This document shows, piece by piece, positions 2,424 to 63,844 of a DNA stretch of 64,000 nt (position 1 is the stretch's first letter; each line of letters opens with the position of its first letter). A program made the translations under genes and the position numbers. The notes beneath the pieces are model-generated. The model did no database searches. It was given only the letters and a program-made list of their open reading frames with translations, and was not told the DNA's origin. The DNA is from Promethearchaeota archaeon (GTDB taxonomy: Archaea > Asgardarchaeota > Lokiarchaeia > Sigyniarchaeales > SOKP01), in contig JBHLOY010000001.1 of NCBI GenBank assembly GCA_048939995.1, positions 1-64,000 on the forward strand. The letters are read 5' to 3'.

Positions 2424-2969
2424 TTAATCTCTCTTCTCTCGTATCTTTTCATATTTTTTAATAGCTCTTTCTCTCCAAACCGTTTTCCATCTTTTAAATC
2501 CTGACTTTACATATCTTTCTCTTTTATAGAAATTATAACAAACCCAATTATATAAAATGAAGTATCTCTTTACCCCACTTTCTTTAGTTAGTTTTTTAGA
2601 TTTTATACCCAAATCATTCTTTAGGTGGGATATAAATTTACCTTCGATAGCATTCTGAAGCTTTCCTTCAATGATTGAATTTTCATAATTAATACCCTCT
2701 TCGTTGAAATAGTTTCTAAGTTCATCAAAAATATTTCCTCGACAAACTACTATTTTTTCTTTTTCTTTATTAAAGTTTAATTCCCTCAAACCTTCCTTAA
2801 CTAATTCTAACGTTCTTTTATAAGGTACTTTATTTTTCCAATTTTCATTTTGAAATAACTCTACTGGGAGTGTTTTGAAAATTAGCTCTCCAGTTTCTTT
2901 TCTTAATATGCCAATAAAAGCGTTGCCAACTATGTCTCCTGTTCCAGCATCATCAATTTCAATCGTCAT
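2424..2969 (-). CDS. Conserved archaeal protein with RNase H-like N-terminus
   Basis: MTIEIDDAGTGDIVG resembles the RNase HII motif GIDEAGRG; likely start ATG 2969. Confidence 0.55.
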   Translation of the reverse strand: MTIEIDDAGTGDIVGNAFIGILRKETGELIFKTLPVELFQNENWKNKVPYKRTLELVKEGLRELNFNKEKEKIVVCRGNIFDELRNYFNEEGINYENSIIEGKLQNAIEGKFISHLKNDLGIKSKKLTKESGVKRYFILYNWVCYNFYKRERYVKSGFKRWKTVWRERAIKKYEKIREKRD

Positions 2970-3147
2970 TTTATTTTTACAAAAATTTAGAATCAATAAA
3001 TATTATTCATTAAATGAGTTATTTGATTTGAAATTTATTATAAGACCTGGTACTGTATTGATGAAATCATCACTATCTAGAATGATAATAAAATTATTGT
3101 ATTGGGAATTATTTAAAAAATTATATTTAAAATCTTACTAATATCGA

Positions 3148-4017: not shown

Positions 4018-5046
4018 TTATAAATTCTGAATTTCAATAATTTCTTTGTTTTCATCAACTCTAACAGTCCTAGGTTTTAAAGAGTCGATGGTTCCTATAA
4101 TCCAATTTTTTATACCATTACTATAAAGTGTATCTGAAAATTCTTCTGCTTTGACTGGGTCGACAGCCATCAGCATACCTCCAGCAGTCTCATGACAAGT
4201 ACAATCATTAAAGGCATAACCTAATTCACTTGAGAGCTCTTGTGATAACTTTATAGCAGGGATTTTTTCTAGAACTGCTGATAAATTAGAATTTTGCAGC
4301 ATTTCCTTTGTATGACCAGATAATCCAAATCCTGTAACATCCGACATTGCATGTATAAAAGAGAAATCACTGTAAGAGTGGATAGTCTTTACGACATCTT
4401 GGTTTGATGTAGTCATAATTTTGATAGCAAAGTTTATAGACTTTTTTAACTCATCTTTTGAATATTGCTCTAGCATTTCAGGAAAGTCTTTTAAAATTCT
4501 GTATGCTGCCATTATTGCTTGAATTCCTATCGGTTTTGTAAGGATTAATTTATCTCCATCTTTAACGCCTTGTTTTTTAATAATAAGATTTCTTTGGATA
4601 TAACCGGACGCTTCTCCACCTATTAATGGATCCTGAGTATATATAGTATGGCCACCGACTATTTTAGAATTAATCTTGTTCTCCATGAAGTTTTTAATAC
4701 CTATAAGTATTCTTTCAGCGACTTTCATTGGCATATTTGTATTTATACCTAGAAACACTAACATCCCGGAGATATGAGGAACATTCATGGCAAAGATGTC
4801 GTTCGTGACATTACATGCAGCAATTTCTCCTTGTATCTCTGGTTCATCAACAATCGGAGTAAAGATATCTAAACTCTTCACTAAGACTAAATCGCTGTTA
4901 GGTATCGACAATACAGCGGCATCTTCAATATCTCCCGCTATACCAGCATTCTGCAATAAATCTTCTAGATTATTTGGACCTAGTTTACATGATCATCCAT
5001 GAATCTTAACTTGAGTTGTGAGTCTATATTCTTTATTTTTTTCCAT
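4018..5046 (-). CDS. selD: Selenophosphate synthetase, selenocysteine-containing (UGA = Sec18)
   Basis: The ORF-track frame extends upstream through TGA at 4993-4995 to ATG 5046: MEKNKEYRLTTQVKIHG-U-SCKLGP; GAGGTG SD-like site upstream; SelD motifs EDAAV, DIFTPIVD, GGHT, SDVTGFGLSGH, ETAGGML. Confidence 0.95.
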
Positions 5047-5634: not shown

Positions 5635-8568
5635 TCAAGGTAAGAGTAGATCAATTTTTTTAGTTGTTTTTCGTTGAAAATCAAATGGGTCTTTATAAAA
5701 TAAATTAAGATTTATCTCATCTACAGTCGGATCTGCTAAATTTTTTTCAATATTGCGATTAATCTTAAGGACATAATTGAACTTAAAAACACTCCCCGAC
5801 TTTAATTCATTTAGATATAAATAGCTTGGAAAACTTTCTTTCATAAGAAATGTAAGATAAGATGGGATTTTTAGTGAAATTTGAATTTCTCGAAAATCAA
5901 AATTTGTGGGATTATTTAATTTAAAATTTAAATACATTTTATTACCGATAGTTTTTATATTTTTAAAAAATAGAAGATCTTTTGCTTCTATAAAATCATC
6001 TTCACTTCGGGGTGAATAAAGATTATCATTTACTATTTTGGCATTTAATTTACGCTTATGAATGAAAGCAAGGATTAATTCTTTCAAAGATTTAATATCT
6101 AATTCTAGATATAATGCTAGATGTTCCAAATTTATTGGATTAATTACTTCTAAATAATATTTAATTTGATTTAAGTAAATCTTGTTGGAACTTTTTTCTG
6201 AAAAGTTTTTCAGCTTATTAATCAGTAATTCTTTCGCTGATACAAATTTTGTAATAAATGGTCGAATATATAAATTAAAGATATCATTTTTCTCCTCAGC
6301 AACTTTTCCAATAATATTATCAATTTGATCTTCATAATTTTCAATAAAATTTTGAATTTGCCTTGAATTCATTTCGATTAATTTCTTTGCATCCATAAAC
6401 TCGCTCTTTTGGATCAAAGTATTTAATTTTATACTTAATTTATCGAAACCTTCATTAAACTTCTTAAAACCTTCAATCCCCTGGGTTATTATTGATTGGA
6501 TATGTCCTTGAAATAATTGAAATCCTAACTCATTTTTAATGCCATTAACTTCTAATTGTTTCTTATCTCCTTTCGTTGTTTCGACAAAGTAATTAACTAT
6601 TTTATCTTTTATTTGTTTTATTTTCTTATCTAAGTCACTCAAATACTCTTGAATTTGGATTTTTGATTCGACCCATTTTTTTACCAAATCTTGAAAGATC
6701 TCATTGAATTCTACATTGTTTACCAAAATTTCTCTAATATCATCATCGAGTCTGAACAAATAATTTCTTAATTGAGTAATTTGAGTAAGTCGTTCTTCTA
6801 TATCTTTATCTTGTGGTTTAGACATTAGAATGTTATCTAAATCATCTGGAAACTTATAATTCTTAATAATTTCAAACTGAGCATTTAATACCGAGATTCT
6901 ATCTTCTAAAACTTTAATTTTAGATTTTAAAGTTGATGTAAATTCTGCTTTTTTCTCTTCAAATATTTCAGAAATAAAACCTTTGACGATACTTAATTCA
7001 TCAATAATGAGTAACTTTGTTTCTTGCCAATCTTCGATTAAATTAAAGGCTAATCTTTTATACTCAAATTTATTGATTTTTTTATTAAACTTCTTTATCT
7101 TTTTAATAATATCAGAATAGATTTTATTTAATTTGATTTCAGTTTCATGAAATTTGAATTCTTTTATATAAGAATTCATTTTTTCACGAAATTGAGCAGG
7201 TATCTTTTGAAAGTCTTTAATAGTCTTATGGAGAGTATCTAAATCTTCATTAACTCTCTGAATAATATCATCAATTTTGCTAAAATTTAATTTAATATTA
7301 TTTAAGGTAAATGATATTTCTTCTTGAACGTCAGGATCAGTTTCGATTTTTAATCTTTTTTCTAACTCAACATAAAGCCAAACTGCTATCTTCTTGTTTT
7401 CCAAAATGAAACATATATTTCTAAGGAGATTTATCGCTTTCTTTCTCTCTCTCCAATATTTAGACTCTAATCTATATAACATTTTAGTAATTTCATTTTC
7501 AATCTCAACTTGATATTCTTCAAACAATCGCTTGAAAACCAAAGCAACAGCGTCTCTCACATCTTCAGATGGATTCTCAAGTTCCTCAAAAACATAATTA
7601 AATATTTCTGTGATATTATTCTGACTTAAATGATAAAGAGCATTAATTATTATATTTTTAAAATCAATATCGCTAGTAGTATAGAGCTTATTAATCAAAT
7701 TAGACCAAATTTGATCAAAATTATTGTGGGAGATACTTACAAGAGCATCAATTACCTTAATTTGAATCCGATAATTATCTTCCTTAAGTAGATTTATTAG
7801 TTTTGGAATTATAGGGATTATCTCTGAGGATTTCTCTTTACCAATTTCTCCAAATAACCAAATTATTAGTTCTTTTACTCGAGGCTGTTCATTATATAAT
7901 AGGTTCAGGAGAATATACATTATTTTTTCTTTAGACAAAAAATAAATCCCAAGAATCTTGAGTAATTCTGCTGCTGATCTAGCTACATCATCATCTTCAT
8001 CTCTTAAATTTACAATAACAATTGATAATAAAGGTTCTAAATCACGTATTTTGGTATAATCTTGATTTAAAATTCTTTTAATCGTTTTAATTACTTCTAA
8101 TTTTACTTTCCAATCAGAATCCATTAATTTTTCTGTGAACTCTTCAATGATGGCGTATAATTCTTCACGATCAATGTGTAAAGATAAGATTAAATTCCCA
8201 ATTATTTTAACTGCTAATCTCCGAACAACAGATTCTTGATCATAAAAACGATTTCTAATTTTTTCTATTAGATCAATCAGTAAATTTGGGCGATATAATG
8301 AGATTTGATAAAGTATTTCTAAACAAACAAGCCGAATCCAAGAATTTTCATCGTTCATTATTAAATCTATGTTCTTTACTATCCGCTCAGAAATAGGAGG
8401 AGCTTTATCACAAATTAAATTTAATAAATTCAGACTTTTGTATATTAATTCCTTATCTGAACTAGCTTCTTCTTCTAAAATCAGAAAAATTTCATCAGCG
8501 GCTTTTTCATAGTTACCGCAAGCGATCAAGTCTTTTACTTTTTCTTCGTCTAAACTAATTGATGTCAA
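5635..8568 (-). CDS. HEAT-repeat solenoid + coiled coil + PCI winged helix + C-terminal beta-sandwich
   Basis: Repeated LxDxxxxVR-type HEAT motifs over about the first 420 aa; INLEHLALYLELDIKSLKELILAFIHKRKLNAKI (PCI-like); beta-rich C-terminus LNFKLNNPT...YLNELKSG...INLNLFYKDPFD. Confidence 0.75.
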   Translation of the reverse strand: MTSISLDEEKVKDLIACGNYEKAADEIFLILEEEASSDKELIYKSLNLLNLICDKAPPISERIVKNIDLIMNDENSWIRLVCLEILYQISLYRPNLLIDLIEKIRNRFYDQESVVRRLAVKIIGNLILSLHIDREELYAIIEEFTEKLMDSDWKVKLEVIKTIKRILNQDYTKIRDLEPLLSIVIVNLRDEDDDVARSAAELLKILGIYFLSKEKIMYILLNLLYNEQPRVKELIIWLFGEIGKEKSSEIIPIIPKLINLLKEDNYRIQIKVIDALVSISHNNFDQIWSNLINKLYTTSDIDFKNIIINALYHLSQNNITEIFNYVFEELENPSEDVRDAVALVFKRLFEEYQVEIENEITKMLYRLESKYWRERKKAINLLRNICFILENKKIAVWLYVELEKRLKIETDPDVQEEISFTLNNIKLNFSKIDDIIQRVNEDLDTLHKTIKDFQKIPAQFREKMNSYIKEFKFHETEIKLNKIYSDIIKKIKKFNKKINKFEYKRLAFNLIEDWQETKLLIIDELSIVKGFISEIFEEKKAEFTSTLKSKIKVLEDRISVLNAQFEIIKNYKFPDDLDNILMSKPQDKDIEERLTQITQLRNYLFRLDDDIREILVNNVEFNEIFQDLVKKWVESKIQIQEYLSDLDKKIKQIKDKIVNYFVETTKGDKKQLEVNGIKNELGFQLFQGHIQSIITQGIEGFKKFNEGFDKLSIKLNTLIQKSEFMDAKKLIEMNSRQIQNFIENYEDQIDNIIGKVAEEKNDIFNLYIRPFITKFVSAKELLINKLKNFSEKSSNKIYLNQIKYYLEVINPINLEHLALYLELDIKSLKELILAFIHKRKLNAKIVNDNLYSPRSEDDFIEAKDLLFFKNIKTIGNKMYLNFKLNNPTNFDFREIQISLKIPSYLTFLMKESFPSYLYLNELKSGSVFKFNYVLKINRNIEKNLADPTVDEINLNLFYKDPFDFQRKTTKKIDLLLP

Positions 8569-25784: not shown

Positions 25785-26405
25785 TTGAGCGAACAAACCA
25801 TAATGGTCCCTGGAGCGGCCTCGATAGCCGTAAAATGCAAGGATGGAGTAGTTCTAGGTAGCGATCGTCGTGCTACGTGGGGTTATACGGTTATCAATAA
25901 GTCAACACAAAAAGTCTTCAAAATCACAGATCATATTGGATTATGTGCTTATGGTCTTATTGGTGATTTTCAAATTTTAGTAAAAATCCTTCGAGCACAA
26001 GCAAACCTTTATGAACTCGATGCTAGTGAACGTATAAACACCCAGAGTTTAGCTAAATTGGTATCTAACTTTTTATATTCTCGAAAGATGATGCCTTTAT
26101 ATACAAATTTAGTAGTAGCTGGTATGGACAAGGACGGTCCGAAGTTATACACCCTTGATGCGATCGGGAGTTTAATACCTGATGATTATGGAGCTGCTGG
26201 AACAGGTATGCTTTTTTCCTACGGTATCCTCGAAGCAGAATATAAAAAAGATATGACTGTTATGGAAGGGGAAAAGCTCGTAGAGAAAACGATAAGAAAT
26301 GCAATAAAAAGAGATGCAATGAGTGGGAATGGGATTGATTTACTAATCATTACGAAGGATGGAACCAAGGAAAAATTTATTGAGATTAAGGAATTAGGAG
26401 AATAA
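25785..26405 (+). CDS. psmB: 20S proteasome beta subunit lacking catalytic Thr1
   Basis: KCKDGVVLGSDRRAT, KVFKITDHIG, LDAIGS, RDAMSGNGID; GAAS replaces GTTT; GAGGAG SD before TTG. Confidence 0.92.
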   Translation: MSEQTIMVPGAASIAVKCKDGVVLGSDRRATWGYTVINKSTQKVFKITDHIGLCAYGLIGDFQILVKILRAQANLYELDASERINTQSLAKLVSNFLYSRKMMPLYTNLVVAGMDKDGPKLYTLDAIGSLIPDDYGAAGTGMLFSYGILEAEYKKDMTVMEGEKLVEKTIRNAIKRDAMSGNGIDLLIITKDGTKEKFIEIKELGE

Positions 26406-26708: not shown

Positions 26709-28745
26709 TTGTATCTATTTGGCAATGTATTCAAAGATATCAGCAAGATAAAAGGATATAATAAGGAAGAAATTCTGGAAATTAAGAATAAGATTGTAAA
26801 ATTAAATTCTGATAAGGAAGAATTAGATGAACTTATAAAAAAGGAATTCCAACTAGAACTCTTAAACTATTTTAATCAGTACATTGAAGACATTAAACAA
26901 TTTATAGAACAGTATTTAATCTCAGATATAGAAAGTTCTTATTACCTTGATTTAAAAAACGAAATCCAGAAGGAATTAAAATTAATTTCTAATAACTTAG
27001 CATTTTTGAGCGCTAATGGGAGGAATATAAAGAGATTTCTAAAGGAGAATCAACGATTAAATGACTTTCTGGTCAAAATGAAGGTTCTAATTGATGAAAC
27101 AGATGTTATTGCTTCAATTCTAAGGAGGTATATGAAAGAAATTGAAAAGGAATACAATAACGATACATATTTATGGATAGAATCAAATAAAGTCAAAAAT
27201 ATTAATTTTAAGTTAAATGAACTACCTAAAAGCTTGACTAAATGGAATGAAATTCAAGATATAACCACTTTTATTAATAGTTTAGTCGAAGCAAAAACTA
27301 AAAAAAAAATTAGATCAAAAAAAGATACTACATTGACTTTCCATTTTGATGAACTTTACCAATATTTCTTAGCAAAACAAGATAAAAAATTAGGTGCTTA
27401 TATAGATTTAATATTTTTACTATACCGAAAAAAGATTATTGAGGAATATAAAGGAGACGAATTTATTAATGTTATCGAGCGGAAAGACATTGTTAGTAAT
27501 TTAAAAACAAATTTGCGTCCCATCTTAAAATCTTTAATTGACGATAAATTGAAAGGAATTCTAAATGAAATATCTGAATTGGATAAAGATTATAATTTAG
27601 ATGGGCAGAAAGGAGAAATAGATATAAAAAAACTAATGAAACAAAAGGTTAAAGTCTTTTTACCTCAATTAGTAGATTTATATTTTATTGGATTAGATAA
27701 AAAGTTTCAATCCTTAATAAATAAAGCAGATGAGAAAAATTTTGATGATTTTGTTAAAATTGTAAATGCTTACTATGAAAAAACTGATAATCTGTTATCT
27801 AAAATAGATGAAATTGACACTTGGCTTTTAAAATACGAACAATTTTTGCATCCTTACGCAAATTTAACGAGTTCTTTAAAGAAAACAATTGCTAATTTAA
27901 CCTCTGATATTTACCGAAGAAAAGAAGAATATATGGTATACTTGAATAGTGTTAAAGATGAGGGGTTAAGAGTTGATATTAGAGCATACATTAACGAAAA
28001 AGCTGATGAAGTCAATAAATTGATCAGTGATTATGAAGATAAAACATCAAGGATAATTCGGGAAGAATTACCGCAATTAAAGCAAATACGAGAATTATTA
28101 AGCGATTATAAGTCAAAAATAGATGAAATCAAAGATGAGGTATATAAGAAATTAGATAAATTTAAAGAAAGTAATATTGATATATATCAGGTCATAAAAC
28201 AGTGGGAAAATAATTTTATAAGAAAGAAACAACAATTAACTTTTCTTTTAACCTTACTGATCAATAAGATTTTTAAAAGTTTTAAGGATTTAATAGATGA
28301 AGAATCTATCTTATTCGCTGAAATAACAGAAATTACGAAACAGACAGAAAATTTCGAAGGATTACCTTTAAATTTTGCACTTTCTGCATTTCTGGCTGAG
28401 AGACTCTCTGAGGAAGAATTAAGGGAGCGAATTTCAGAAATAAATGCTAAAATTAACCAATTAACTACCAGTATGGGATTATATCAGGTGGAGCTCTCAA
28501 AATTAGAAGAAATTCTTTCCAAAAAAGTAAAAGTAAGGCAAGGTGTTGCGGTTTCAAAAATTCAATGCACCGTATGCCATAAAAATATCAATTTTGCTCA
28601 GGATAAATTGATAACATGCCCTTTTTGTGGCAGTACATATCATTATTTATGTGTAGCTGATTGGCTTTCAAAGCAGAATTCTTGTCCTATGTGTATGAAT
28701 CATTTTCTTGAACCTTATTCTGGTTTATTCGAAACTGATGACTAA
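26709..28745 (+). CDS. Long helical/coiled-coil protein with C-terminal C4HC3 RING-variant finger (candidate E3 ligase)
   Basis: CTVC...CPFCGSTYHYLCVADWL...CPMC at the C-terminus. Confidence 0.75.
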   Translation: MYLFGNVFKDISKIKGYNKEEILEIKNKIVKLNSDKEELDELIKKEFQLELLNYFNQYIEDIKQFIEQYLISDIESSYYLDLKNEIQKELKLISNNLAFLSANGRNIKRFLKENQRLNDFLVKMKVLIDETDVIASILRRYMKEIEKEYNNDTYLWIESNKVKNINFKLNELPKSLTKWNEIQDITTFINSLVEAKTKKKIRSKKDTTLTFHFDELYQYFLAKQDKKLGAYIDLIFLLYRKKIIEEYKGDEFINVIERKDIVSNLKTNLRPILKSLIDDKLKGILNEISELDKDYNLDGQKGEIDIKKLMKQKVKVFLPQLVDLYFIGLDKKFQSLINKADEKNFDDFVKIVNAYYEKTDNLLSKIDEIDTWLLKYEQFLHPYANLTSSLKKTIANLTSDIYRRKEEYMVYLNSVKDEGLRVDIRAYINEKADEVNKLISDYEDKTSRIIREELPQLKQIRELLSDYKSKIDEIKDEVYKKLDKFKESNIDIYQVIKQWENNFIRKKQQLTFLLTLLINKIFKSFKDLIDEESILFAEITEITKQTENFEGLPLNFALSAFLAERLSEEELRERISEINAKINQLTTSMGLYQVELSKLEEILSKKVKVRQGVAVSKIQCTVCHKNINFAQDKLITCPFCGSTYHYLCVADWLSKQNSCPMCMNHFLEPYSGLFETDD

Positions 28746-33107: not shown

Positions 33108-34115
33108 ATGAAACTATATTTGGTCAATAAGGGGGAACTTAACGAGATTAATAATCCCGTTCTATCAAAAGGAGATGTTTACCTTCTTGATGACCAGAAA
33201 ACAATCTACGTTTGGATCGGGAGTAAGTGTTCAGTTGACGAGAAAACAAGTGGTGCTGCTCAAGCAAGAAAGTTGGATCAAGAAAGAGGAGGGGCTGCTA
33301 AGATAATTACTGTTGATGAGGGACTAGAATCAAATGATTTTCTTAAAGCTATCAGTTCTATGGGAACAATAAAAATAGTTGAAAAAAATATTGCCAAAAC
33401 GCTGTTAAAAGACGTGGCTACTGGTGATTGGGCTGGATTTACCGAACATGTTAATGTTTTATATAGGGTATCTTCAGAGGAATTTGAAGGTATAAACGCT
33501 ATGAAAATGGTTCAAGTACCGTTTTCTAAAAGTTCTTTAGACACAGAAGATTGTTTTCTAGCTGATCTGGGTACTAAAGTCTATATATGGCAAGGTTCAC
33601 AATGTAATGTCAAAGAAAAAGTAAAATCAGGTCAATGGGCGCGTCAAATTGACGCTGATCGTCCAGGCCTTCAAAATGAAACGATATTTGAAGAAGGAGA
33701 TGATACTGAATTTCTAGCTTCTTTAGAGCGAGGTGAACATTATAAAGAATCGGATGCTGTCCAATTGAGGGCAGAATCTGAGTTAGAACCCGAAATTGAA
33801 GCAGATAAAGTAGAAATTAAACCTGAAACAAAAGCAGTAATTAGAGAAGTAACACCTGAAGAAATTAAAGCAGATATTGCCGAATTAAAAGCAGCAAGTC
33901 CTTCTGGTGCAGCACCGGGAATTCCTGGTTCTTCTGATGATCTACTAACTATTGAGAAAATTGAAGGAAGAAGACGTTGTCCTAAATGTGGAAATGAAGA
34001 TAAAATGTTGATTCATGAGAGTGTTGATAAAGGAAATATAATTCTAGATTATCCAAGAATGTATGGTAAGAAATACCGCTGCGGGCAGTGTGGGATAGAA
34101 TGGCGTGAAAAGTAA
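33108..34115 (+). CDS. Two-domain gelsolin (Asgard 2DGel type) with acidic linker and C-terminal Zn ribbon
   Basis: LSKGDVYLLDD-x-KTIYVWIGSKCSVDEK and LDTEDCFLADLGTKVYIWQGSQCNVKEK gelsolin repeats; CPKC...CGQC. Confidence 0.9.
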   Translation: MKLYLVNKGELNEINNPVLSKGDVYLLDDQKTIYVWIGSKCSVDEKTSGAAQARKLDQERGGAAKIITVDEGLESNDFLKAISSMGTIKIVEKNIAKTLLKDVATGDWAGFTEHVNVLYRVSSEEFEGINAMKMVQVPFSKSSLDTEDCFLADLGTKVYIWQGSQCNVKEKVKSGQWARQIDADRPGLQNETIFEEGDDTEFLASLERGEHYKESDAVQLRAESELEPEIEADKVEIKPETKAVIREVTPEEIKADIAELKAASPSGAAPGIPGSSDDLLTIEKIEGRRRCPKCGNEDKMLIHESVDKGNIILDYPRMYGKKYRCGQCGIEWREK

Positions 34116-43855: not shown

Positions 43856-44275
43856 TTACGACCAAAAAGCTTCCTTTAATTTATCTACAGGTTTTTCTAA
43901 AGAATTCTCAATAAATTGCCCAAAATTAGCAAAAATAGATACATCACCATCCCATTTAAGTAAATCTTCAGAAGAGTAGATATCAAAAAATTTATCACTT
44001 ATTACTTTTAATTCATCCACCACTTTTTTTTCCTTAGTCTTGTTTAAAGCAGTACCTACAAAAAGAAAGTCCCTACGTCTTACAATTGTAAATCTTATGT
44101 TGCTCATTTCAAAATTAGAGATACCTCCATTAGAGAGTTTTTCTGCAAAAGTATTTAAAGCAGACATTAGCGCGCCAAATAATTGAGGATTAATTTTTTC
44201 ATGATCTGCAACTCTAGAAAACAGAGTAACTCCAGTAGATGTAAGAATCCATAAGTCTTTAACTATTTTTGCCAC
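43856..44275 (-). CDS. Longin-domain protein (Asgard type)
   Basis: LWILTSTGVTLFSR...QLFGALMSALNTFAEKL...FLFVG...FFDIY...WDGDVSIF longin pattern. Confidence 0.8.
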   Translation of the reverse strand: MAKIVKDLWILTSTGVTLFSRVADHEKINPQLFGALMSALNTFAEKLSNGGISNFEMSNIRFTIVRRRDFLFVGTALNKTKEKKVVDELKVISDKFFDIYSSEDLLKWDGDVSIFANFGQFIENSLEKPVDKLKEAFWS

Positions 44276-61588: not shown

Positions 61589-63844
61589 ATGACACTAAAA
61601 GAAATTACTAAGGAAATTTTCACGAGATATGGATTTACTGAGGAGCAAATCCTTATTTATCTAGTATATTTGAGAGTACCAAGAGCTACAGCTTCCGAAG
61701 TTTATCTAACATTAATGGATGGTCATGAAGAACTCACTTATGATAGTGTTTTAGAAATCACAGAATGGTTAGTTGATAAGGGATTTCTTAAAAAAATTAC
61801 TGGAATCGTGGATAGATTTATTCCACTTGAACCTTATTTTGAACTATACATTGGAGAGTCAGAGGGTTTTAGAGATGAAATTGCAAAAATTAAAGATCAT
61901 ATACTAGCTGATCAAGCTAAAAGGTTTGAAAAGCTAGAAGCAATTCAAGATAAAAGTATCAATGAAGTCGAAACTGCTGTTGATAACCAAATCAAAGCTT
62001 TCTTTTCGGATTCTGATACAAAAAATAATGATAAAAGGGAAAAGATTAATAACGCTCGAAATAGATTTACAGATACTTCCAAAACATTGGAAGAAAATCT
62101 CCATAACATTTTAGATACATTAAATATAGATTTAAAGGAAATTTCCGATTCTAAAATCAAGGAAAATGAGGATGGTGTTAATAAAACTAAAGATAATTTA
62201 ACTAATCTTATCTCTGATTTATTAAGTGATTTTTCAAAACGCGTTAATGATCTAGAAAAAGAACTAAAAAATGATTTAGATAATCATGTAGAGAGACACA
62301 AAACTATAGCTAGCGATTTAAAACCAAGAATGGAACAAATACTAGAAAAGTATTTAGAAAGAATGGATAAAATTGTTACCGATTTAAAAGAAAGAATTTC
62401 TCGTCTCTTAAAAGAACATCTTAATCATTTAAAGAACACCACCGATACACTTTCTACTAATTTGAAAGCAACTGTAGATGATAGACACCGAATCTTAACT
62501 GAACAAACAAATGAATTTAAAAGCATGACATTAACACTTATAGACAATCTTTTAGAGCATGCCAATCGATTTACTGATTTTTCAGCAGATATGGCTAAAA
62601 AAGGATTCTTCTGGATGGGTAAAAAGAAAAAGTATAAAGCGCGCCATGAAACCACAATCCAAAATATTTTAATATATACGGAGCCAATGAAAGATGGATT
62701 CATAGACGTAAGTGAGAATTATATCAAAGATACAAGGGATACAAACGAGACTCTAAAAGGTGAAATTACTGATATAATGATTAAGGAAAATGATAATGTA
62801 GTAACTGAAACTACAGATCTTGACCAGAAGGCTCAAGAAACCATTAACGTTCAACTAGAAACCTTAGCCACCGATATGGCTGGTGAAATCAATAATACCC
62901 TTACAAGTGGTGTAAAAGACTGTTCAGACACTACAATAAAGTTGAAGGATGGTTTAGAAAATGCACTCAAACAACACCACCGCCAATATGATGATGCAAT
63001 TAATAAACATAAGGATCTTTCATTAAAGCATTACACAGACTTTGATAGTGAAGTAAAACAAACAAAAGCGAATTGGATTAGAGAAGTGGATGATAAATTC
63101 ATTGCTGGAAAAGCAGATACATCCGAAAAAATTACGAATGAGATTAGTTTATGGGGGGATGAGTCAGCAGATTTAGATAGAAATTTAAGTCAAATGCTCA
63201 CAGATCATAAATCTAAATATGAACAAAACGCTAAGTCTCTTGAAAGTAGCTTATCTAACACGACGCAAGATACAACTCAAAATGTTAAAGATGTAATAGC
63301 TGATTTCACTCTTCAGTTTATGAATTCTATTGATGATGCAACTGAACTAGCAGAAAAGAATGAAGCTAAATTAAAGGATATATATAACGCTTCAGCAGCA
63401 ATCCCAGAGTTAGCTGAAGTAACAACTTGGCCAATAGTAGGAAAGGAAGCTATGATCGCTGCTATTAAGGATGCTGTCTTTAGAACTAAATCCTCGATAA
63501 TTGTTGTCATGCCATCTGTTATTCCTGAAGTTCTACAAGTTGTAAGTGAATATGCTTACCAGAAAAAAGCGGCGAGGTTTCTACTCACTAGTCATTGGGA
63601 TATGAGTCAATACGGTGATATTATAAGAAAAATGATGGCTCTTGGAAATATTCAGTTTAGACAACTTAGTAGCACAGGAGAATTTTTTGCTGTAACCCGT
63701 GATGCCGAGGAGGTAATTATAGGGCCTGCAACTGATAAAGAAAGTGAGATGATATCAATTGTATCAAACCAAATGCAGTATAGTATTTTGTATTCACAGT
63801 TCATCGGTCCTATTTTCCAGGCGAATAGCCGCCCTATTAAATAG
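61589..63844 (+). CDS. TrmB-like regulator with ~520-aa helical insertion
   Basis: N-terminal GFTEEQILIYLVYL...LVDKGFL...RFIPLEP wHTH; C-terminal WPIVGKEAMIAAIKDAVFRTKSSIIVVMP...TRDAEEVII TrmB effector/PLD-like domain. Confidence 0.75.
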   Translation: MTLKEITKEIFTRYGFTEEQILIYLVYLRVPRATASEVYLTLMDGHEELTYDSVLEITEWLVDKGFLKKITGIVDRFIPLEPYFELYIGESEGFRDEIAKIKDHILADQAKRFEKLEAIQDKSINEVETAVDNQIKAFFSDSDTKNNDKREKINNARNRFTDTSKTLEENLHNILDTLNIDLKEISDSKIKENEDGVNKTKDNLTNLISDLLSDFSKRVNDLEKELKNDLDNHVERHKTIASDLKPRMEQILEKYLERMDKIVTDLKERISRLLKEHLNHLKNTTDTLSTNLKATVDDRHRILTEQTNEFKSMTLTLIDNLLEHANRFTDFSADMAKKGFFWMGKKKKYKARHETTIQNILIYTEPMKDGFIDVSENYIKDTRDTNETLKGEITDIMIKENDNVVTETTDLDQKAQETINVQLETLATDMAGEINNTLTSGVKDCSDTTIKLKDGLENALKQHHRQYDDAINKHKDLSLKHYTDFDSEVKQTKANWIREVDDKFIAGKADTSEKITNEISLWGDESADLDRNLSQMLTDHKSKYEQNAKSLESSLSNTTQDTTQNVKDVIADFTLQFMNSIDDATELAEKNEAKLKDIYNASAAIPELAEVTTWPIVGKEAMIAAIKDAVFRTKSSIIVVMPSVIPEVLQVVSEYAYQKKAARFLLTSHWDMSQYGDIIRKMMALGNIQFRQLSSTGEFFAVTRDAEEVIIGPATDKESEMISIVSNQMQYSILYSQFIGPIFQANSRPIK

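Follow-up and report, generated by a model that had tools for sequence, protein, structure and literature searches.

A Lokiarchaeia scaffold protein that joins a HEAT trunk to a helical rod of three repeats, a winged helix of the PCI type and a sandwich resembling adaptor ears

Analysis of a 64,000-nucleotide stretch of the genome of a Promethearchaeota archaeon (contig JBHLOY010000001.1, positions 1 to 64,000; hereafter the window) revealed a real and conserved gene that encodes a large soluble scaffold protein of 977 amino acids, in which a HEAT trunk is followed by a three-repeat rod, a PCI-type winged helix and a sandwich like that of adaptor ears (Table 1). No description of this order of modules was found in the literature searched, the coverage of which was incomplete; as far as that literature shows, the architecture is undescribed, yet it is composed of known Asgard parts. 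The four modules, the kinship of the winged helix and immunoglobulin-like (Ig) sandwich with proteins of the PCI/UFL1-ear-Vps28C type, the kinship of the rod with a membrane-anchored PCI protein and the existence of a rod-less paralogue are established by sequence and predicted structure, unlike descent from, or function as, a coat adaptor. The best explanation, for which the chances are put at about even, is a soluble scaffold specific to one order of the Lokiarchaeia, domain-shuffled from parts that this lineage reuses and serving as an adaptor-like arm.

Architecture and conservation of the 977-residue protein

The highest 19-residue hydropathy value of the protein was 1.41 and no clear transmembrane helix was found, indicating a soluble protein. 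An AlphaFold2 model built from 54 sequences (mean pLDDT 82.5) displayed a solenoid of about 22 helices arranged as some 11 hairpins (residues 8-428), a series of long helices (residues 432-808), a winged helix (about 809-851), a short flexible linker of low confidence (855-862) and an eight-stranded sandwich (residues 866-973). The reading frame and the model thus bear out the four-part anatomy (HEAT repeats, helical middle, PCI-like winged helix and beta-sandwich) given in a preliminary description of the DNA sequence, of which the motifs NFKLNNPT, LNELKSG and LFYKDP were all retrieved in the protein. The joining of modules that it had proposed was found as well, as a PCI/UFL1-type winged helix and an ear-like Ig domain do lie behind a HEAT solenoid in one chain. 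The middle part, described there as helical/coiled coil, consists of three internal helical repeats instead of a plain coiled coil.

The range of the gene was surveyed by running a profile of residues 335-660 on Asgard genomes. The gene was retrieved in 119 of 128, 13 of 14 and three of three genomes of three families belonging to the same Lokiarchaeia order (135 of the 145 other genomes); none of the eight genomes from the remaining orders of the class yielded it, and the search of other Asgard classes did not retrieve it. It occurs as a single copy per genome, and its length and layout are kept down to 25% identity. Close homologues are about 970 amino acids long and mostly carry the labels Promethearchaeota or Lokiarchaeota. 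The orthologue of the cultured Ca. Lokiarchaeum ossiferum is NEF87_003957 (UYP47672.1); the annotation goes no further than hypothetical or HEAT repeat protein. A PDS5 label on one close homologue was rejected, being a generic HEAT match. A search of sequencing runs listed no RNA data set containing the gene.

Furthermore, a paralogue of 588-610 amino acids was found, consisting of trunk, winged helix and Ig sandwich without the rod. Its N-terminal half aligned with that of the 977-residue protein at a probability of 99.7. This paralogue of about 600 amino acids is of patchy occurrence and was not found in the source genome. In seven of seven loci (L093-L099), it faces a LuxC-like gene in convergent orientation, behind which LuxE, FIST and gelsolin-like genes lie in most cases.

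The C-terminal cassette and the rod

In a family profile comparison (hhalign), the winged helix and the Ig sandwich together aligned over 161 collinear columns (probability 97.1, E 5.5e-11) with a 788-residue protein encoded elsewhere in the genome (G000:C28:163407-165794; L090:5408-7771, minus strand), and the sandwich alone did so at a probability of 92-94.5. The latter protein, which is highly conserved in the order, combines Zn ribbons with several PCI/UFL1 winged helices and an appendage-like region, ends in a Vps28-C-like part and matches PCI (E 1.8e-26), DDRGK, E3_UFM1_ligase and VPS28. The likeness of its residues 450-685 to adaptin and COP appendages (feature scores of 0.81-0.86) is a lead only, and a PDB sequence search with the profile of this appendage gave no match. 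Fusions of Vps28 with adaptin/COPI C-terminal domains and UFL1 have been published for Asgard archaea (10.1101/2020.10.19.343400, Fig. 5a), as have combinations of Vps28-C, appendage, Ig and HTH/PCI domains (10.1101/2024.02.06.579148, Fig. 6B). Hence, the cassette is homologous, as judged from sequence profiles, to that of a published type of Asgard protein. Members of this type share the collinear winged helix and Ig sandwich with the 977-residue protein, but differ in their Zn ribbons, the several copies of the winged helix, a platform-like subdomain and Vps28-C; the 977-residue protein has instead a HEAT trunk and a rod, a single winged helix and nothing beyond the Ig sandwich. This architecture as such was absent from the literature searched, but fusions of winged helix/PCI domains with adaptin ears were already published in Asgard archaea.

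The last 188 residues were also modelled on their own (pLDDT 88). Among known structures, the best matches of the Ig sandwich were the GAE domain of BBS9 (Z 11.7, rmsd 2.2 over 100 residues) and TRAP-beta (Z 11.3), followed by the alpha-adaptin ear (Z 10.8, rmsd 2.3 over 101 residues), the GAE domain of GGA2 (Z 10.2), pilin (Z 10.1) and alpha-2-macroglobulin (Z 9.7). The likeness to an appendage Ig domain is thus one of fold only and is tied with that to TRAP-beta and BBS9, which provide the best sandwich folds but match as single domains at 11-15% identity, the remaining architecture being unrelated. An ESM Atlas feature search of the C-terminus returned no more than an uninformative match (0.76). 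The best relatives of the sandwich within the genome were two proteins in which the ear has a platform-like continuation; in the family itself, no platform subdomain follows, as all aligned homologues end at the last Ig strand. A 329-residue protein with an Ig domain, a platform-like domain and a Zn ribbon (G000:C25:2406-4591, L089) is encoded about 0.9 kb from a JAB/MPN gene.

A second reused part is the rod. Its three repeats aligned with each other (hhalign E 2.6e-5, 3.5e-4 and 1.8e-3) and carry the W-x3-K motif at W514/K518, W632/K636 and F775/K779, tryptophan being present at these sites in 41, 46 and 35 of 46 homologues, respectively. With the family profile, the rod aligned over 324 columns, at a probability of 96.9, with a 1470-residue protein (G000:C22:3914-8323; L136, minus strand) that is present in 34 of 41 genomes of the same order and combines a toroid of the prenyltransferase type and W-x3-K helical repeats with winged helices of the PCI type, its C-terminal tail being hydrophobic; reversed and block-shuffled controls reached at most 9. 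This likeness is clear only with the family profile, single sequences not rising above shuffled controls. Comparison of the rod with a helical RING protein encoded in the window (26709-28745) gave no support. The alignment with the 1470-residue protein indicates that the rod is a reused Lokiarchaeal module and not an adaptin hinge. Indeed, residues 432-853 are predicted as folded, conserved helices and a winged helix, so that the analogy drawn beforehand with the linker of adaptor subunits fails on a folded rod of 380 amino acids. No VPS28 match was found for the 977-residue protein in Pfam scans, in which the rod was not folded and searched separately.

The winged helix links the protein to PCI proteins. 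Pfam PCI stayed below threshold on the 977-residue protein itself (15.5 bits versus a cut-off of 22), but was found in 27 of 30 family members (best E 2e-6) and was the commonest Pfam match in a scan of 50 C-termini (35 of 50). Paf67/eIF3L matched the protein (E 6.5e-5), and weak PDB sequence matches were obtained with eIF3e, CSN1 and DDRGK1. By sequence and fold, the domain is of the same subtype as in the PCI subunits of the proteasome lid, COP9 signalosome (CSN), eIF3 and TREX-2 and in UFL1/DDRGK1. Structural Z-scores ranged from 9.2 to 10.4 (UFL1/DDRGK1 10.2, CSN 9.7, eIF3 9.5 and TREX-2 9.4). These matches, together with the presence in the genome of other PCI proteins and six JAB/MPN matches and with SelD, eIF2-gamma and NOG1 as recurrent neighbours, would fit a subunit of a lid-, CSN- or eIF3-like PCI ring in protein turnover or translation, with the HEAT trunk and Ig sandwich as substrate-binding extras. 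This reading is nevertheless improbable, albeit the best placed of the alternatives. PCI rings use bihelical repeats and a C-terminal bundle helix. In the 977-residue protein, a single 40-residue helix (769-808, in the third rod repeat) leads into the winged helix, and a linker and the Ig sandwich follow it, so that the bihelical bundle just before the winged helix and the bundle helix behind it are both missing. UFL1/DDRGK1 and NiaR score no lower than PCI chains, and the neighbours form a generally conserved block that differs in the Sigynarchaeota orthologues and around the short paralogue. The modelled module amounts to half a PCI domain, namely the winged helix, bihelical repeats and C-terminal bundle helix being absent; a PCI-type winged helix had thus been recognized rightly beforehand, but a complete PCI domain had not. 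A PCI winged helix also occurs in another protein of the genome, together with a TIR domain and repeats like those of nucleoside deoxyribosyltransferases (G000:C13:216904-218544, L091).

Taken as a scaffold shuffled from these parts, the protein may work as follows. The HEAT solenoid would hold a client protein and the rigid three-repeat rod would space the C-terminal cassette from this trunk. The winged helix may dock onto other PCI/UFL1-type winged-helix proteins, as in PCI rings and ESCRT-II, while the ear-like Ig sandwich, by analogy, could grip short peptide motifs of accessory proteins. Probable partners of the cassette would be PCI/UFL1-type and ear-bearing proteins, some of them bearing Vps28C or anchored in the membrane. 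The outcome would be an adaptor arm, without adaptin orthology, in a membrane-proximal, ESCRT-linked network of sorting or quality control.

Several observations weigh against this scaffold reading. First, the DNA-binding protein NiaR matches the winged helix as well as any PCI or UFL1-type chain (Z 10.4). Secondly, two domains of a DUF11/CARDB/NPCBM repeat protein (P0158, picked as a profile match) aligned to the Ig sandwich at probabilities of 79 and 94, that is, to its profile as well as or better than single sequences of the ear-bearing paralogues. As DUF11/CARDB-type domains align to it, the sandwich alone is no proof of ear function and peptide binding stays an analogy. Matches of the sandwich are not confined to such generic folds: Alpha_adaptinC2 matched 5 of 50 members (best E 3.4e-4), no DUF11 match was found at the gene and neither DUF11 nor CARDB was among the 25 families listed in the Pfam scan of 50 members. 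Lastly, the conserved neighbours of the gene are housekeeping genes and not ESCRT or trafficking genes.

The HEAT trunk, Integrator and adaptins

Pfam HEAT matched the 977-residue protein with E 8e-18, and the Adaptin_N family scored 43.4 bits on residues 2-430. The HEAT family profile was compared with a control profile of the same size, built for an unrelated HEAT family that the genome also encodes, an ear-less membrane protein. With the former, AP-1 beta (70.2 bits), AP-2 beta (68.6 bits), PP2A-A (67.9 bits), AP-3 delta (67.5 bits, collinear over 9-319 versus 69-387), transportin (65.9 bits) and CAND1 (63 bits) were found; with the latter, AP-1 beta (72.2 bits), AP-2 beta (71.2 bits), PP2A-A (77.3 bits) and INTS4 (69.8 bits). 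In the structural ranking of the trunk, INTS4 (Z 20.0), designed armadillos (19.9), importin-alpha (18.6) and CAND1 (18.0) preceded AP-3 delta (17.8, rmsd 12.5 over residues 1-432), beta-COP (16.8) and gamma-COP (15.0). By profile bits, control family and structural Z-scores, adaptins are no nearer to the trunk than other HEAT families are. Its adaptin likeness is therefore generic, since the control scores AP-1 and AP-2 beta equally and INTS4, armadillos, importin-alpha and CAND1 rank above or with AP-3 delta; an affinity of the HEAT region to adaptins does exist, but at the non-specific level of that control.

The prominence of INTS4 leads to the possibility of a nucleic-acid scaffold like Integrator INTS4/INTS7, which share a HEAT solenoid and a terminal beta-sandwich with the 977-residue protein; the winged helix and basic Ig sandwich of the latter would then contact DNA or RNA. 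Chains of INTS4 and INTS7 were the best full-length Foldseek matches of the full model, and Integrator chain 8rbx_g aligned across residues 19-975. In addition, the winged helix resembles NiaR and Z-alpha domains, and the Ig sandwich is net basic (17 K+R versus 11 D+E), the solenoid of residues 1-430 being net acidic (74 D+E versus 57 K+R). However, the global TM-score is only about 0.25, the rod and winged helix are unmatched, and the likeness is generic to HEAT proteins, as the control family reaches INTS4 too. An Atlas fold search with the full model returned generic HEAT proteins only. By sequence, moreover, the cassette is nearest to proteins that bear an ear and Vps28C. An Integrator-like role is unlikely, somewhat more so than a place in a PCI ring.

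The least probable alternative, which must be regarded as quite doubtful, is a proto-adaptin, that is, a homologue of the large subunits of AP/COPI coats in which trunk and ear are fused, which coats membranes with longin and Arf-like GTPase partners and into the hinge of which the rod and winged helix were inserted later. Large subunits of AP1-5 and COPI (alpha, beta, gamma and delta adaptins; beta- and gamma-COP) likewise combine an N-terminal HEAT solenoid with a C-terminal ear-type Ig domain at a similar length, AP-1 beta, AP-2 beta and AP-3 delta are near the top of the HEAT profile matches, and AP-4 beta was the only natural single-sequence match (E 1e-3). The ears of gamma-adaptin and GGA consist of an Ig domain only, which offers a precedent for a sandwich without the platform found in alpha, beta and COP ears, and the short paralogue comes nearer to the adaptin layout. 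The collinear AP-3 delta match is the sole remaining hint of adaptins. Yet, besides the control family, PP2A-A, transportin and CAND1 come within 2-7 bits of the adaptins, and Adaptin_N also matches two other HEAT proteins of the genome (three in all) and Methanosarcina. Adaptins were not among the best 50 Foldseek matches of the full model, an absence from a list that does not amount to exclusion. Moreover, the trunk measures 430 amino acids and a folded rod with a winged helix takes the place of an unstructured hinge, the family is limited to one order, no sigma/mu partner was identified and no longin was found, with a longin profile, in 394 kb flanking 34 homologous loci. The vesicle-coat identity proposed beforehand is thus not upheld, the adaptin score of the trunk being equalled by an unrelated HEAT family and the Ig sandwich being tied with non-coat domains.

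Genomic context and significance

The neighbours conserved around the gene are SelD (14 of 21 loci), a CinA-like gene, a MaoC pair and NOG1, with eIF2-gamma in the sister family; Sigynarchaeota orthologues adjoin HerA. In the window, SelD (about 4018-5046, minus strand) contains an in-frame TGA in an HG-U-SCK motif upstream of the listed reading frame, so that it is likely a selenoprotein that was shortened in the list of reading frames. A conserved neighbour of 190 amino acids (2424-2996, minus strand) begins in the manner of RNase H (IEIDDAG) and weakly matches PRP8 domain IV (E 0.0035).

Table 1. Features of the 977-residue protein gene and the longin gene in the window (residue numbers refer to the 977-residue protein).
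Feature	Position	Strand	Description
Whole gene	5635..8568	minus	977-aa ORF, TTG start, without internal stop
HEAT alpha-solenoid	7279..8568	minus	residues 1-430, about 11 helical hairpins; Pfam HEAT, model and structure matches
Helical rod	6145..7278	minus	residues 431-808; W-x3-K motif in each of three internal repeats
PCI/UFL1-DDRGK-type winged helix	6010..6144	minus	residues about 809-853, entered from the last rod helix
C-terminal Ig sandwich, GAE/adaptin-ear/TRAP-beta type	5638..5973	minus	residues 866-977
Stand-alone longin	43856..44275	minus	Mon1/Fuz type; 35 kb from the 977-aa gene

The stand-alone longin to which the preliminary description had attached a sigma/mu-N meaning does exist, but resembles Mon1 (E 3e-6; Fuz_longin_1 E 2e-6) and not AP-1 mu (E 0.22). 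As the genome contains 38 longin-like reading frames, about nine of which stand alone (about 0.65 expected per 64 kb, 0.15 for stand-alone ones), and in view of its distance from the gene and the lack of longins in the homologous flanks, it is a chance neighbour. A Clat_adaptor_s search gave no match anywhere, its controls included. The one Adap_comp_sub match of the genome was rejected as a mu subunit, as it is marginal (33 bits) and overlaps DUF11 in a multi-Ig protein with an acidic insert (G000:C38:70530-72746; L135, minus strand).

Other genes of the window, all on the plus strand, comprise that of the RING protein mentioned above (678 amino acids), which ends in a RING-H2 finger and directly follows a proteasome beta-subunit-like gene (25785-26405), a putative gelsolin-like two-domain protein with a C-terminal Zn ribbon (33108-34115), and a 751-residue protein (61589-63844) with, as far as its sequence suggests, a winged-helix-like N-terminus, a long coiled coil and a TrmB/PLD-like C-terminus.

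According to PMC10307638 (main text and supplement), both Adaptin_N-like and appendage domains exist in Asgard archaea, though not in fused form, and most Asgard multidomain proteins of this kind have been described as patchy (10.1101/2020.10.19.343400). Here, a HEAT solenoid and an ear-type Ig domain occur in one chain, the gene for which is present as a single copy nearly throughout an order that includes cultured members. The controls indicate that convergence through shuffling is likelier than descent, and they warn that Adaptin_N matches in Asgard genomes are weak evidence. There is only a slim chance that the family, and more so its paralogue of about 600 amino acids, is a true archaeal homologue of the AP/COPI large subunits in which a PCI-type winged helix assembles the coat; if it were, a trunk-ear fusion not detected in Asgard archaea by PMC10307638 would exist there. 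The family thus offers a testable case for the origin of trunk-plus-ear layouts.

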